Positions 6,081 to 56,086 of a stretch of 64,000 nt of DNA are shown piece by piece. The stretch lies in the IMG/VR virus record IMGVR_UViG_3300035208_004396; one strand, given 5' to 3'. How positions within the stretch are numbered: position 1 is the stretch's first letter; every line of letters starts with the position of its first letter. Origin of the DNA: a virus. Its lineage: Duplodnaviria > Caudoviricetes. The notes below the pieces were generated by a model. That model searched no databases, was not told where the DNA came from, and saw nothing but the letters and a program-made list of their open reading frames with translations. Made by a program: the position numbers and the translations under genes.

Positions 6081-6860
6081 ATGAATTACTTAATAGTATT
6101 GACAAAATGTTATAATGTAAAAGATTTCATGACATTTTACGATTATCACATTAGATTATTTGATAAGATTATAGTGTATGATAACGAATCAAGTGTTAAA
6201 ATACCGGTAAAATCCGAAAAGATAATTGGTTTTCCAGATCAATATTCTTTATATAATGAAATTATGAAAAATTTCCCATTTAAAAATGACGATTTAGTAT
6301 GTTTTCTTGATGATGATGAGTATTTATATACAGATTTTGATAAAAATGGGTTTAATGATGCCGTTTACGGCGTTTTAGATCGGTATGGAGCAAATATTTT
6401 ACATATACCCGAGATACTTATCAGTACTAAAGTTTTGCTCTCTAAACGCCATGAAACGCTGCCCATTACTTCGAGATATATCAGATTGGATAAAGGTAAT
6501 ACATGTAAGTGTATTATTCGTTATAAAAAAACACATTATGATTTTAATTTCAAAAATATTATGATATCTGACACAATAGGTCATATACCGAGTATAAATG
6601 GAGTTAAATATAGTGTTGGTATGTCTACATTTCCCGATATATCTTATAGCAGTTATGCTAAAGTGGATTTAGATGCAAAGATAAGGTTATATCATTATCA
6701 CATTAAATCGGAAGCGGATTGGTTGATTAAATTGAACAGGGGTAGTGCTGCTACCAAGATACCTTGGTATAGTAATGATATAAGAATGAATTATGCTTTT
6801 TCTGGATATGATACTATTGATAATAGTGTCTATTATAAAGTTAAAGAAAATCTATATTGA
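6081..6860 (+). CDS. GT-A fold glycosyltransferase (GT2/GT92-like)
   Basis: YH...FDKIIVYDNES, FLDDDEYL (DxD), KCI, LYHY..KS..DW..K..RG motifs. Confidence 0.8.
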   Translation: MNYLIVLTKCYNVKDFMTFYDYHIRLFDKIIVYDNESSVKIPVKSEKIIGFPDQYSLYNEIMKNFPFKNDDLVCFLDDDEYLYTDFDKNGFNDAVYGVLDRYGANILHIPEILISTKVLLSKRHETLPITSRYIRLDKGNTCKCIIRYKKTHYDFNFKNIMISDTIGHIPSINGVKYSVGMSTFPDISYSSYAKVDLDAKIRLYHYHIKSEADWLIKLNRGSAATKIPWYSNDIRMNYAFSGYDTIDNSVYYKVKENLY

Positions 6861-6865
6861 ATAAT

Positions 6866-7792
6866 ATGAAAGTTGAAAAGATAGATTATACAAAGTTTTC
6901 ATTGCTTAAACCCGTAGAAGATACATGTATGATTCAGTCCGATACAGATTCTATGTATATGAGTGCGGATGAATTATACCAAAAGACACCTGATATGGAC
7001 GATATGAAGTTCTTATTAGGTATAGATAAGATGTTTGGCGATTTTTGGAACAATTTTTTAACTAATAAAGCTAAATCAGAAGGGGTCGAAGATCTTATTA
7101 AATTCAGTAGAGAGAGCTTATTTGGGTCATTTTTGTCTATTAAAAAGAAGATGTATATAGGTACCAAGGTAGTAGAAGATGATCAAATCTATGGTTATGA
7201 TCATTGGAAACCCAAGATTAGTGGTATTTCGTTGCATAAGTCAGCTATGCCCAAATTCTGTAAAACTAAAGGTGATCCCTTGATTTTTAACATTTTGACT
7301 AAACATAATAAAGCAGAAACCGATTCCGAAATGGTGAATATTTTTAACGAATATAAGAAACAGAAAATAGAAGATATAAGTTCAAATGGCTCAATAGGTG
7401 ATTATAAGAAATATGTTCCTGAAAGAATGAAAACTTATTTATCTGAGCCAATTTTGTCTAATTTTATGAAAGGTTGGTCAATTAATGCAAAAATGGCATT
7501 CAGTTATAATTGGATTCTTGAAAAATTCAATTTACCTTTGACACCTATTAGTAGTGGAGAAAAATTCAATTATATCTTCGTTAAGCCTACAAATCAGTTT
7601 GGTATAGAATCTATAGCTTATGTTGATGAATGGCCAGAACAATTTTCGAAATTTTTTGAGATTGATTATGAAATGTCTTTTAGAAAGTTCTTTTTACCTA
7701 TTTTCGATCAGGTTTATAATATAATCCATTGGAAAAATGATGACGAAATTATACCGTTGAAATGGTCAAGTTTGGATTTTTTGCACGGTTGA
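6866..7792 (+). CDS. gp43: Family B DNA polymerase, C-terminal part (motif C palm + thumb) of a split gene
   Basis: SDTDSMY (motif C), KKKMY, KISG..L.KS..P, GEKFNYI, IDYE..F.K.F..P. Confidence 0.9.
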   Translation: MKVEKIDYTKFSLLKPVEDTCMIQSDTDSMYMSADELYQKTPDMDDMKFLLGIDKMFGDFWNNFLTNKAKSEGVEDLIKFSRESLFGSFLSIKKKMYIGTKVVEDDQIYGYDHWKPKISGISLHKSAMPKFCKTKGDPLIFNILTKHNKAETDSEMVNIFNEYKKQKIEDISSNGSIGDYKKYVPERMKTYLSEPILSNFMKGWSINAKMAFSYNWILEKFNLPLTPISSGEKFNYIFVKPTNQFGIESIAYVDEWPEQFSKFFEIDYEMSFRKFFLPIFDQVYNIIHWKNDDEIIPLKWSSLDFLHG

Positions 7793-51785: not shown

Positions 51786-52086
51786 TCAAATTTTAATACA
51801 AGCTATTAAAAAAGTATGTCTTGATAAAAAAACACCGGGTTTTGTCAAACACATTTTAACAGATGCGACCAAATCATATTTCTCCGAATCTATTAACTTA
51901 GTTTATACTAAACCAGAATTAGGAGATTTATGTCATAGTATTAAAAATATAAATGAAGAGTATAAGATTCTAAACAATAGTATAATCTGTGAAAACGTTC
52001 AATTAGTAGATGCCATTATGACAAAAGGTGAATTTATCGGTACCGTTTTTCATAATATTCCCATTAATATGTTAAGCAAAAACTAA
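51775..52086 (+). CDS. Hypothetical protein
   Basis: ORF overlapping the upstream stop. Confidence 0.45.
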   Translation: MKNDQILIQAIKKVCLDKKTPGFVKHILTDATKSYFSESINLVYTKPELGDLCHSIKNINEEYKILNNSIICENVQLVDAIMTKGEFIGTVFHNIPINMLSKN

Positions 52087-52784
52087 AAAGTATAGTTATA
52101 CCATATTTTCTTTAACTGAGAAAAATCTGGTTTATCTACTGTAAATTCGGTTAATACACCATTTTTTATCATATCTTGTATTTCTTCGAAATTTGCATAT
52201 TTTTCTACTCTTTTAGATAATGAACTAGATTTATAATTAGATGGTGCTTTATATATTGCTAAAATGTGTGCTTCAGTCAATTTTTCAATTTCTTCACGAT
52301 TCAAATATTTGGCCACTATAAAATTAATGCCATCTAGATTGATTATATAACAATTTCTTATAGTTTTAGTTTCATCTCTTGATTTAATCCAACTCAATTT
52401 TTTAGATTCTTCCTCTGTAGCATAACGTTGAATAATACCTATATCTTCACCATAATAATCTGATGCTATCTTAGCATATTTATTCCAAAATGCACCATGA
52501 TAAGCACCATATTTACTCTGTTTTTTACCATTAACAGAACCATCTAATACATGTATCATTTCATGTAAAATAGTATTTACTAATAATTTTCTATTATCGA
52601 AAATTTTATCTTTTAATCTTATTAAATAACCATTTCTATATTCTGATGTATCACCGAACTTATCTTCATCTTTAGGCAATCTAGCCAGAAATATAGGAGG
52701 TAATATGTAACCTAATTCTTTCTCAAAAAAGTCCTTTCTGAAAAATTTAACAATATCTTTAGCATCTGCAATAGAATATAACAT
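52083..52784 (-). CDS. SprT-like zinc metallopeptidase
   Basis: TILHEMIH....HG.FW; ATATATA-N5-ATG. Confidence 0.8.
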   Translation of the reverse strand: MLYSIADAKDIVKFFRKDFFEKELGYILPPIFLARLPKDEDKFGDTSEYRNGYLIRLKDKIFDNRKLLVNTILHEMIHVLDGSVNGKKQSKYGAYHGAFWNKYAKIASDYYGEDIGIIQRYATEEESKKLSWIKSRDETKTIRNCYIINLDGINFIVAKYLNREEIEKLTEAHILAIYKAPSNYKSSSLSKRVEKYANFEEIQDMIKNGVLTEFTVDKPDFSQLKKIWYNYTF

Positions 52785-52843: not shown

Positions 52844-54859
52844 TTAGTTCACAAGGATGGAAGCTTTTACTTTTTGTCCATTTACTTCGACTAAGTCATC
52901 AGGATAAAAATAATCAATTTTACCATTATCAAAGGTGATTTTTATTGTAGGCAAATATTTATTAGCAGATTTCAAAATAGCATCAGATTTATAAAATTCA
53001 TCAGTTGCTTCTATCAAACTTCTAATTGTACATCTGGCCCCCCTAGTAATAGCTCTTGCACAATCTATGTTGTAGAATCTAAACTTGGGATAGAGTAATG
53101 CCCCATAAACCGAGTTAATGATAGTTTTTCTGGTTCTCTGTTCTACGAAATATCTAATAGTTCCAACTTCATCTTTTTCAGCTTTTGCCTTGAGCCATAG
53201 TTTCTTAAAATACTTTCTTTCGGCATAAACAGTTTTAACGAACTTTGGAATCATACCCTCTTCAGGTAAGAAATATACTCCATTTATCTTAGATTTGATC
53301 AATTTCAAAGACTTAATTTTATCCGGTGTGGGCTTAATTACAACACATTCTGGACTTATATTATATTGTCTTATATGATGAGGATATGAACTGTTAATGT
53401 CACCATCTAGTCCATGTAGATATAAGCCGGTCTTATTTGCACAAAAACCAGCTTTAACACTAAATGGAGCATAAGAATAATAAGCTTTTTTTTCCGGTAC
53501 CCAAACTAAATAATCTTTCTTTATTTGCTCAATAGATGGTTTTTTTACCATACTATCGGGAATTAGGTTTTGCCATTCTATTGTACCATCTGCCAGTTTG
53601 TTCTTATAATAACCTTCTTGAATCCACCAATCTTGTACATTTCTTTCTTTATTTAAAGGAACTGTTTTTTCTTTTAACACGAACTGGAGAATATAAGCTT
53701 CTGCTAATTTTGACATAGAAGAAATCTTATTCACCAAGATCAAACCATTATGACTCAATGAAATAGCAGTATTTATCAACCCAGTTTTATCATTAAGTTT
53801 AACGAAACATCTTACGTCTTGTCTGTTATAAACAACATATTTGTTATAATCTTTTCTATAAAAATCTCGAATGGGACCATCATATTCTATCTTACCAATC
53901 CCAAGCTCTTTCATGCAAATATCATTCAGTTTGAAACTTGGCAGATTGAATTGTCTTGTTAAATGTCTATACATTACCATATAATCGATGTGAATCAAAC
54001 CAGGGATTTCACAATTATATGAGTAATCATAATTGACATTTGCTGAAGTATTCTCATTATCTATTTCTGGTGCTATATTCAGAGGTGATAACAATTTAGA
54101 CAATCTCGAATCTAATTGATTCATCCTGTTAACAACATAAGGTACGTCGAAATGTGCACTATTCCAGCCAGTCAATATATCGAAATTCTGTTTATTGAAC
54201 CAATTAGCAAAATTTGTGAGCATTTCGAGCTCAGTTTTGAAATAATGATAATGATCTACACTTGGATCGTCCCCAGTATAAGGTTCAAGACCCCAAGTAT
54301 GATAAGCTTTATCTATATTTGAATATACCGTAATTAAATTAATCGGATATTCTGCAAGATTAGCAAAAGGAAATTCTGCTTTATAATAACAACTTCTTCT
54401 ATATGGTGTTACAATTTTCTCTTCTTCATCATAAACCGGTGTATTCAGATAATCTCGATCGATTTCTAGTTCTAATATAGTTTTATATCCAGTTTTAACT
54501 CTAACTTTATGATATAATGGATATTTTCGGCCGGATTGAATTTCAATATCAAAAAAAGCAATACGATAATCACTCTCGGAAATATATCGATCTTCGTTGA
54601 GATAAGTATATAATAAATACTGTTGAACTGGTGGTAAATCATATAAAAATGCTTTATTTGCTTCACCTAACATCCTAACATTATCACGATCATCTGAACT
54701 GGTCAACTTGACTTTTTCGTGAGTTCGCCACAAAGAATAATCACCATTTTCATCCCTAACGAAGTATTTCCTCACATAACGCTTACGATTATATTTTAGG
54801 TCATCTTTGTTTTTGTAATAAATGTAGCCTTTATGATAACAAACATTCTTATAAATCAT
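52844..54859 (-). CDS. gp43: Family B DNA polymerase, N-terminal part (exonuclease, motifs A and B) of a split gene
   Basis: FFDIE (ExoI), GWNS..FD.PY (ExoII), YN.QDV (ExoIII), DINSSYP (A), K..INSVYG (B); no DTDS. Confidence 0.92.
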   Translation of the reverse strand: MIYKNVCYHKGYIYYKNKDDLKYNRKRYVRKYFVRDENGDYSLWRTHEKVKLTSSDDRDNVRMLGEANKAFLYDLPPVQQYLLYTYLNEDRYISESDYRIAFFDIEIQSGRKYPLYHKVRVKTGYKTILELEIDRDYLNTPVYDEEEKIVTPYRRSCYYKAEFPFANLAEYPINLITVYSNIDKAYHTWGLEPYTGDDPSVDHYHYFKTELEMLTNFANWFNKQNFDILTGWNSAHFDVPYVVNRMNQLDSRLSKLLSPLNIAPEIDNENTSANVNYDYSYNCEIPGLIHIDYMVMYRHLTRQFNLPSFKLNDICMKELGIGKIEYDGPIRDFYRKDYNKYVVYNRQDVRCFVKLNDKTGLINTAISLSHNGLILVNKISSMSKLAEAYILQFVLKEKTVPLNKERNVQDWWIQEGYYKNKLADGTIEWQNLIPDSMVKKPSIEQIKKDYLVWVPEKKAYYSYAPFSVKAGFCANKTGLYLHGLDGDINSSYPHHIRQYNISPECVVIKPTPDKIKSLKLIKSKINGVYFLPEEGMIPKFVKTVYAERKYFKKLWLKAKAEKDEVGTIRYFVEQRTRKTIINSVYGALLYPKFRFYNIDCARAITRGARCTIRSLIEATDEFYKSDAILKSANKYLPTIKITFDNGKIDYFYPDDLVEVNGQKVKASILVN

Positions 54860-54919: not shown

Positions 54920-56086
54920 ATGTATATAGCAGTATGCAACAAAGATCAATTCAAAATTAAATTGGATTCTATTAGGCATTATTATAATCCTAGATTAGAT
55001 ACCAACATTGATAAAGTTGATGATCAATTATATTCCGAATTATCGGCATTATATTGGCTCTGGAAACATAACAACGATGATATCATAGGACTTGAACACT
55101 ATCGTAGATTCTTCGTTAGCAAAGATAGCGATGTTTGGAATCACGAAAAAGCTAAAAAAATAGAATTGGTTAATGAAAATGAAATTAATGAACTGTTGCA
55201 AACTAAGGATATTATCTTATGTGAACAAGAAGTACCTGCAAAGAATGCTCTGACATTCCTTTTTTCTACAAGACATAATTCAGTAGACTCCGATTCCACG
55301 ATGTATGATATGTTCATAAATTGGTTCGAATATTTAGCTAAATCGAATAACAAGGATTTCTATTTCTACATGATAAGGGAAATGTCTAAATCCCCCACGT
55401 TATATGCTAATAATATGTTAATTGGCAAAAGAGAAGTCATAAGTTCATACTGTAACTGGTTGTTTCCTACCTTATCAGACTTTAAATCTCGTTATTATCC
55501 AGCAAAAATGGTACAACGTGGATTCGGTTATCTTGCAGAATGGTCTATGGGATATTGGTTCAAATTCAATAAAATAGCAATAACTAGCTTATATAAAGTA
55601 GTTTATGATGATGATGCTAAACCTACTAGATGTTGTTTTACTCATGAAGAACTAACTAATTCTAAAAATGATGTTTATGTAAATAAAATATTGGACAAGA
55701 TTAGCCGGGATTTCAAAGAAACACTATCTAAAAACATGCATTTTGATAAAAACGGTGTAAATATTCAAATTACCGAAAGAACCGGAGATGTTTTGATGAT
55801 TGCTCACTATCTCAGATTTGGATTTAATGTATATTATATCGGTAAAAACAACAACGAATTTATTAAAAAACTAGTTGAATTATATAATGATGATAATTAT
55901 GCCAGAATAGTTTTGGGTCATGTACCACCATTAGAACACTGTTTATATACCGAAACATTATTAATATCAGATTTAGCTCAGGGTATTTCCGCATTAAAAG
56001 ATCATAAAGAGGGTATAAAAGCAACAGCTAAAGCTATCGATTTAGATCATAGAAGCATTATAGATACAGTGGTGTATCTTAAATGA
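54920..56086 (+). CDS. DUF4422-domain (glycosyltransferase-associated) protein
   Basis: YSEL.ALYWLWK.....IIGL.HYRRFF, NM, YC.WLF..L, R..GYLAE. Confidence 0.8.
   Translation: MYIAVCNKDQFKIKLDSIRHYYNPRLDTNIDKVDDQLYSELSALYWLWKHNNDDIIGLEHYRRFFVSKDSDVWNHEKAKKIELVNENEINELLQTKDIILCEQEVPAKNALTFLFSTRHNSVDSDSTMYDMFINWFEYLAKSNNKDFYFYMIREMSKSPTLYANNMLIGKREVISSYCNWLFPTLSDFKSRYYPAKMVQRGFGYLAEWSMGYWFKFNKIAITSLYKVVYDDDAKPTRCCFTHEELTNSKNDVYVNKILDKISRDFKETLSKNMHFDKNGVNIQITERTGDVLMIAHYLRFGFNVYYIGKNNNEFIKKLVELYNDDNYARIVLGHVPPLEHCLYTETLLISDLAQGISALKDHKEGIKATAKAIDLDHRSIIDTVVYLK

Follow-up and report, generated by a model that had tools for sequence, protein, structure and literature searches.

The window analysed here is the whole 64,000-nucleotide stretch of the Caudoviricetes record IMGVR_UViG_3300035208_004396. 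Our subject is the family B DNA polymerase (PolB) that it encodes in two pieces, an N-half and a C-half, and in particular the short peptide that is added to the N-half at its broken end. This peptide, which we call the relic tail, is well supported as a descendant of a split intein, and it has lost the ability to splice. The features concerned are the following.

52844-54859, minus strand: PolB N-half gene, 671 residues, with the stop codon at 52844-52846 (open reading frame (ORF) and translation); its layout is exonuclease domain, palm motif A, fingers motif B, palm helix, relic tail
54542-54556, minus strand: Exo I (motif location in the N-half, as for the next four)
54137-54163, minus strand: Exo II
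53813-53830, minus strand: Exo III
53378-53410, minus strand: motif A
53102-53128, minus strand: motif B
52949-52963, minus strand: NKYLP, with which the native polymerase sequence ends ahead of the relic (family alignments)
52847-52948, minus strand: relic tail TIKITF...SILVN, residues 638-671, 34 residues (family alignment, hhalign, AlphaFold2)
52895-52906, minus strand: YPDD, at the position of TEDH in real inteins (profile alignment)
6866-7792, plus strand: PolB C-half gene, 308 residues, with the motif C hairpin, the remaining palm and the thumb (translation)
6866-6898, plus strand: C-half head MKVEKIDYTKF, the first 4-8 residues of which are like the starts of real split-intein C fragments
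6938-6952, plus strand: motif C (SDTDS), residues 25-29, with the catalytic aspartates that the N-half does not have

A polymerase divided over two genes

Exo I-III and motifs A, B and C of a T4 gp43-like family B DNA polymerase are divided over the two genes, which lie about 45 kb apart on opposite strands. Motif location over all 671 residues of the N-half did not find motif C; the protein ends about 94 residues beyond the motif-B lysine, and its C-terminus reads ...NKYLP-TIKITFDNGKIDYFYPDDLVEVNGQKVKASILVN-stop. The N-half is matched by the Pfam families DNA_pol_B_exo1 (1.5e-17) and DNA_pol_B (6e-10) and, in BLASTP, by cyanophage gp43 (5e-41), residues 546-832 of which are matched by the C-half (E 1e-19). 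T4-like cyanophage gp43 proteins are the named polymerases nearest to those of the window, at an identity of only 27-30%. An exhaustive HMMER search gave 1061 relatives of the C-half, both split and unsplit, where a word-index search had given just 3, and D26, T27, D28 and S29 of the C-half are invariant in the alignment (A3). The window is AT-rich (GC 31%) and phage-like, and the same genes are present on metagenomic contigs of up to 206 kb.

The tail is one version of a module found at the break

Family alignments identify NKYLP as the window's form of an anchor, KKYFP, that is shared with relatives in which nothing has been added. The relatives come in three forms. Some are unsplit, with about 82 residues from motif B to DTDS; others are unsplit with 138 residues over the same interval, owing to an insertion of about 56 residues right after the conserved KKYFP; the third form consists of split N-halves that terminate within this insertion, mostly at ...FNKETDLLG[IV]xx. 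The tail of the window corresponds in the alignment to strands one to four of the insertion, hereafter the module.

In a FastTree tree, which was built from the N-terminal 440 residues only and carries long-branch warnings, including one on the join of P0006 with the window lineage, the module-bearing forms are confined to one supported clade (100% SH-like). Its 57 rows comprise 28 split forms, 7 unsplit forms with the module and 22 unsplit forms without it. The break lies within or at the end of the module in all 28 split clusters, and the extra peptide is absent from the 22 unsplit relatives of the same clade and from cyanophage gp43. The three states are interleaved within the clade, the split state changing at least 10 times on well-supported branches, and this pattern suggests exchange of the 3' part of the gene between phages.

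The tail is under strong purifying selection, the same as the enzyme. When the window is compared with one relative that is about 92% identical in protein, the ratio of non-synonymous to synonymous divergence (dN/dS) is 0.041 in the tail (dS 1.06; 12.5 synonymous and 3.5 non-synonymous differences in 35 codons) and 0.048 in the rest of the gene; the C-half head and the stretch before motif C show a similar pattern over their few sites. Seven near-identical variants of the tail differ conservatively (I to V, L to M, I to T or S), and the tail is 68% identical in a relative with 69% identity over the matched polymerase region.

Evidence for intein ancestry

Three independent lines, namely profile-profile alignment, a search of PDB sequences with a profile, and fold searches, give good support to an intein origin of the module. 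First, a profile of 34 module sequences was aligned with hhalign to 32 real inteins (P0054, P0056, P0205 and 29 more) of phage PolBs related to that of the window, some of them contiguous and others split. The match (probability 81%, P = 1.2e-5, score 33.0) covers 44 gapless columns at intein positions 74-117, beginning with the strand that precedes block B and running to the final strand of the N fragment; the reversed profile scored 14.5, and 150 column shuffles had a mean of 10.2, a standard deviation of 2.0 and a maximum of 17.8. As judged from these profiles, the likeness of the module to inteins is beyond chance. The window's own 39 residues, used as master, gave the same register (P = 0.007) and placed YPDD on TEDH.

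Second, among 177,635 PDB sequences the top match of the module profile was 9HTH (E 0.043, in block B), the Aes123 PolB1 intein of T4-like Aeromonas phages, which is split in nature and has no cysteine (PMC11923092). The two were aligned on ...VTADHSVMVKRDG... and ...KIKAGGKEVIVTADHSVMVKRDGKIIDVKPTEMKQT. The ends of the proteins agree as well, since real split N fragments finish with ...RNGDIIDVSPKDIKSGDKIMKI-stop and relic-bearing N-halves with ...RNGEEMKIPANKFNKETDLLGIDD-stop, which is the same point.

Third, the AlphaFold2 models have a predicted, partial Hint-type beta fold, and fold searches with them retrieved inteins and further Hint domains almost exclusively. For the module taken from an unsplit relative, the model reached a predicted local distance difference test score (pLDDT) of 92.1, and its best Foldseek matches in PDB were the inteins 5bkh (TMq 0.69), 9hth, RadA, TvoVMA and KlbA. 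The tail of the window was modelled at pLDDT 87.4 as four predicted strands (7-10, 16-19, 24-27 and 30-33), which match block B and the strands that follow it, that is, the second half of a split-intein N fragment. Inteins make up 12 of the 13 top VIA-align matches of this model, over the block-B region, with Z at most 3.9, as expected for 39 residues. Foldseek against PDB gave no significant match for the 39-residue model; the Npu DnaE intein stood at rank 8 and T4 topoisomerase at ranks 7 and 15. Pfam, applied to the tail alone and to all 34 module sequences, reported no Hint family, just scattered weak matches.

The sequence-only reading had proposed a split-intein remnant from the non-polymerase tail of the N-half and the C-half start MKVEKIDY. 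Both sequences are exact in the ORF translations, and the proposed origin is supported by the three lines above. A predicted structure unrelated to Hint had been named there as the outcome that would speak against the proposal, and neither the models nor the fold searches returned such a structure.

Loss of splicing

The relic is incapable of splicing, as every splicing residue is gone. A complete Hint horseshoe takes about 130-150 residues with blocks A, B, F and G; the relic has 34 residues in the window and about 56 in relatives, and the module, which spans block B to the start of the C fragment, amounts to about one third of the domain. Block A and the Cys, Ser or Thr of position 1 are not present, the relic aligning only from intein position 74 or so onwards. 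YPDD stands opposite TEDH, in place of the TxxH of block B, and there is neither His nor Cys in the tail. The C-half, which reads MKVEKIDYTKFSLLKPVEDTCMIQSDTDS, lacks blocks F and G, the terminal Asn and a junction with a +1 nucleophile, and it contains no VYD...HNF...HN/S (here and below, a slash marks a junction); real split C-halves of the same family do have block F/G, the terminal HN and the +1 junction. The replacement of TxxH and the lack of a block A Cys and of a terminal HN-C/S/T had been noted correctly in the sequence-only reading. Neither does the relic sit at the known PolB intein site, DTD/S in motif C.

Inteins are thought to persist only while they splice, since an insert that stays in an active site would be expected to kill the protein that hosts it. 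In the present case, one third of a split intein, dead for splicing, has been retained by a whole clade of phage replicative polymerases, precisely where the gene is broken and under strong purifying selection.

The head of the C-half

The claim that the C-half starts with an intein C part holds only to a limited extent. At most its first 4-8 residues can be intein-derived, to judge from the alignments, and residues 5-24 or so align with polymerase sequence that relatives lacking the module have as well. The native sequence that follows the insertion is RYNFDIEPIKVKRREG... in relatives with the module, IKFKNKTPLVIKNRDV... in those with none and KIDYTKFSLLKPVEDT... in the window; it is alike with or without the module and is therefore ordinary polymerase sequence, which leaves the window C-half with no more than about 4 extra residues. 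In relatives the head extension comprises 10-13 residues.

Across lineages that are only 30-38% identical, split C-halves begin with a common motif, M-x-[FV]-V-K-x-[DE]. The heads of split relatives are MKVVKAE, MKFVKCE, MKFVKAN, MEFIKVD, MNFVKVD, MKFVKVS, MSEFVKID and MLVKVD. They resemble the starts of real intein C fragments (MKVEYIEDF, MNFILTDDF, MKKVKILQ), a likeness of 4-10 residues that is too short for statistics. As to the start codon, an in-frame TTG at 6857 would add MNN to the C-half; relatives favour the ATG at 6866 (MKVEK, MKVVKAE).

A possible docking function

What might a dead third of an intein do in these enzymes? We consider it reasonably probable that the tail is a split-intein relic which, together with a strand of the C-half, completes a small beta-sheet, so that the enzyme assembles non-covalently. 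The source would be a split intein like those that remain active in phage family-B polymerases, e.g. Aes123 PolB1. Its surviving part would be the last third of the N fragment, reaching the canonical split point in most relatives, with at most a few residues of the first strand of the C fragment. The four-stranded tail and the N-terminal strand KVEKIDY of the C-half would form the sheet, KIDY being the proposed pairing partner of the tail, and the sheet would dock the motif-C hairpin of the C-half beside the palm helix of the N-half. Protein trans-splicing would thereby have decayed into trans-association.

Such a clasp is inferred. It is proposed because the tail is under purifying selection, because split C-halves keep their head motif, and because tail and head have been duplicated together: the N-half P0006 (L006:1447-3645) carries two tandem tail modules, and its partner C-half P0123 (L002:6001-6987) has two IDY strands. 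These two genes lie on one 137-kb contig, about 72 kb apart. A clasp is also the likeliest function in view of what has been retained, namely the C-terminal part of the N fragment; in the account given in PMC11923092, which cites a 'capture and collapse' study, this second segment of the N fragment is disordered and folds intertwined with the C fragment. A further argument is the superposition of the tail model on the gp39 extension of T4 topoisomerase, described below, for which a role in assembly has been proposed. A complex prediction from the C-half alignment and the 39-residue tail (score 0.01, mark 0.32) counts neither for nor against binding. P0123 has a longer head, which includes VYDV, resembling a block-F remnant (MKFVKCEKIDYVYDVRKINNKRVIDY).

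Several points weigh against this interpretation, some on the side of ancestry and some on the side of function. In hmmsearch with a hidden Markov model of real inteins, single sequences scored at most 9.7 bits and the window's protein had no match, so the homology rests on profiles and predicted structure; in the same search the best match fell on the module, in the correct register, in all 8 unsplit module-bearing proteins. The relic follows directly on KKYFP/NKYLP, 21-24 residues upstream of DTD/S, whereas all 32 real PolB inteins in our set lie at DTD/S or no more than 2 residues away, and simple decay in place therefore does not account for it. The ancestor of the relic may have been an intein inserted elsewhere, or a rearrangement may have given rise to it; a microhomology-mediated deletion might have shifted the site, given a by-eye likeness between native KKYF.IK and intein KKRMFKI. 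As for function, the tail of the window is the shortest version (34 residues as against 45-60), it is without the ...FNKETDLLGI strand, and the head of the C-half contributes no more than about 4 extra residues. The 7 unsplit relatives retain the module, which is accordingly not needed solely for joining chains. Finally, the tails of the split ribonucleotide reductase NrdA of Aeromonas phage Aeh1 are not required for heterodimer formation (PMC3045599).

With regard to intein sites, a metagenomic PolB fragment of 804 residues (P0297) contains two inteins two residues apart within motif C (YGD/intein/TD/intein/...), and phage PolB thus has at least two neighbouring intein sites.

A wider proposal is offered tentatively, and we regard it as doubtful: the relic could be the working part of a mobile 'fracture cassette', made up of the tail, an optional free-standing homing endonuclease and the head, which spreads among phage polB genes. 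It would carry its own non-covalent clasp, so that the cut essential gene survives, with trans-association in place of trans-splicing, and the same half-Hint solution may underlie the extensions of T4 gp39/gp60.

Alternative explanations

The alternative that survives best accepts the descent from an intein and gives the module another job. It would be a small surface domain, serving palm folding or solubility or a contact with the clamp, the helicase or the replisome, and the halves would meet via the ordinary palm-thumb interface. We hold this to be rather unlikely. On the one hand, it would explain why the 7 unsplit relatives retain the whole module, and there are parallels in the Aeh1 NrdA tails, which are essential for activity and dispensable for the heterodimer (PMC3045599), and in the insert of a fused T4 topoisomerase, a pendant with little effect on activity (PMC11461880). 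On the other hand, it does not lead one to expect a break within or at the end of the module in 28 of 28 split clusters, an N-terminal motif conserved among split C-halves, or a duplication of head strands that accompanies that of the tail modules. The unsplit forms, moreover, have split forms as neighbours in the tree (P0010 is sister to split P0009 and P0011), so that they may have arisen by secondary fusion; alternatively, the module may have a further role.

That the tail is a neutral, functionless leftover on its way to loss is very improbable. The window version is indeed shorter than most, but a dN/dS equal to that of the enzyme body at a dS of about 1.06, the conservative substitutions in the seven variants and a rate of change that keeps pace with the matched polymerase region all speak for maintenance.

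Another notion takes the tail for a degenerate second copy of the motif-C hairpin (SDTDS to FDNGK) that stems from an overlapping duplication at the gene break. It was prompted by BLASTP against cyanophage S-RIM2 gp43, in which the N-half alignment runs over the tail onto ...IASDTDSIYICLDLLV...IVN, the same stretch that is matched by the C-half. The family alignment contradicts this notion: unsplit relatives hold both the module and their own motif C downstream, and the BLASTP overlap is therefore a spurious extension. A direct alignment of the tail with the C-half is at chance level (score 23 as against 22.5 +/- 4.2 for shuffled sequences), and the module aligns with inteins and has a predicted intein-like fold.

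Real, active split inteins exist in related phage PolBs, but the idea that the present element is an atypical intein still active in trans-splicing has practically no probability, considering that about one third of a Hint domain is left, that block A and a first-residue nucleophile in register, TxxH, and any His or Cys in the tail are missing, and that the C-half offers no block F/G, terminal Asn or +1 nucleophile junction.

Relation to known systems

Split inteins in phage PolB, fractured genes and the non-splicing tails on Aeh1 NrdA and T4 gp39/gp60 are already known; a literature search found no description of a natural splicing-dead split-intein relic that is retained at a gene break. The closest system is the Aes123 PolB1 intein, the best sequence match and among the best fold matches, whose host is likewise a phage family-B polymerase split in the palm near motif C. 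The relic spans the region from its block B to the end of its N fragment, and most relic-bearing N-halves stop at its split point. Aes123 PolB1 differs in that it has 120 + 39 residues, Ser1, TEDH, block F/G, HN and a +1 Ser, and splices, whereas the relic consists of about 34-50 + 4-13 residues, none of them catalytic, and lies 21-24 residues upstream of DTD/S.

In the 'fractured genes' of Dassa et al. (2009, PMC2677866), split inteins flank a free-standing homing endonuclease gene that is often Vsr-like. The likeness consists in phage replication genes broken at an intein and in a Vsr-like ORF between the halves of one relative; the inteins of fractured genes are complete and presumed to splice, and that of the window is reduced to a non-catalytic piece. 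The relatives show several arrangements of the two halves. They are adjacent or overlap by ATGA in four relatives (L008, L010, L014 and L015), separated by an ORF with zinc-finger and DUF559/Vsr-like parts in one (L009), and unlinked in the window and in the phage of P0006 and P0123. No C-half was found within the 3-kb flanks of the N-half in the phage of P0004. By analogy, the series from adjacent through endonuclease-separated to unlinked halves matches the steps of the fractured-gene model, of which genomic uncoupling after loss of the endonuclease, as in the window, is the last (PMC2677866).

The ORF in L009 (6544-7656) has 370 residues, an N-terminal C2H2 zinc finger and a C-terminal match to DUF559/Vsr-like sequences (E 4.7e-4, just below the Pfam cut-off), and is likely a free-standing homing endonuclease as far as its sequence tells. 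The L009 C-half (7657-7773) contains an in-frame TAA right behind DTDS (DTDS-stop-KSCYLCFNEAIERL), which may reflect a faulty assembly, a pseudogene or recoding.

In having additional peptides at both broken ends, which unbroken homologues lack, the window polymerase resembles two further phage enzymes. The tails of Aeh1 NrdA-a/NrdA-b were made by insertion of mobE and are essential for activity (Crona et al. 2011, PMC3045599); they too are C- and N-terminal additions at the break of an essential split phage enzyme and a non-splicing way of neutralising gene fragmentation. They differ in being described as unique sequences with no intein ancestry, and in being needed for higher-order assembly (PMC3045599). 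In T4 topoisomerase II, the C-terminal extension of gp39 and the N-terminal extension of gp60 derive from a MobA element (the 'TOPRIM insertion') and form a pendant on the TOPRIM domain that is proposed as an assembly aid (PMC11461880; bioRxiv 10.1101/2022.08.31.505936). Host enzyme and element are other than here, and gp39/gp60 was not among the matches of the module profile against PDB sequences. The model of our tail superposes with low structural scores on residues 478-514 of gp39 (8yo3_C), that is, on the element-derived extension, which is one of the few non-intein structures to match it. Going by these models, the gp39 extension may itself be a half-Hint relic; neither of the two gp39/gp60 papers calls the module intein-like. 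Among archaeal split PolBs, that of Methanothermobacter thermautotrophicus has no intein (PMC2677866) and no intein-like tail reported, and that of Nanoarchaeum equitans has a split intein that splices (5oxx, NeqN/NeqC).

How split phage polypeptides such as gp43 are reassembled has been posed as an open question (PMC2988022). If the relic is a docking device, it would be a natural example of how covalent protein splicing can give way to subunits that assemble non-covalently, and it may account for the tolerance of essential genes to being fractured by homing endonucleases. It would further connect the unexplained tails of Aeh1 NrdA and T4 gp39/gp60 with a known fold, and provide very small natural heterodimerising peptides (about 35 + 10 residues) with no ligation scar and no catalytic residues.

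Neighbouring genes and a second insertion

The C-half gene is preceded by a glycosyltransferase-like ORF (6081-6860), which ends 5 nucleotides ahead of the ATG. The N-half gene is flanked by a DUF4422 gene (54920-56086, plus strand; E 4e-27) and by a gene for a SprT-like metalloprotease (52083-52784, minus strand; E 1.8e-5, just under the Pfam cut-off), and the order DUF4422, N-half, SprT-like is also found in the 69%-identical relative (L011). Residues 399-458 of the N-half (about 53486-53665, minus strand; TVPLNKERNVQDWWIQEGYYKNKLADGTIEWQNL...) form a stretch of about 60 residues that is mostly extra in comparison with cyanophage gp43, judging by long gaps in BLASTP, and constitute a second lineage-specific insertion, between the exonuclease domain and motif A.

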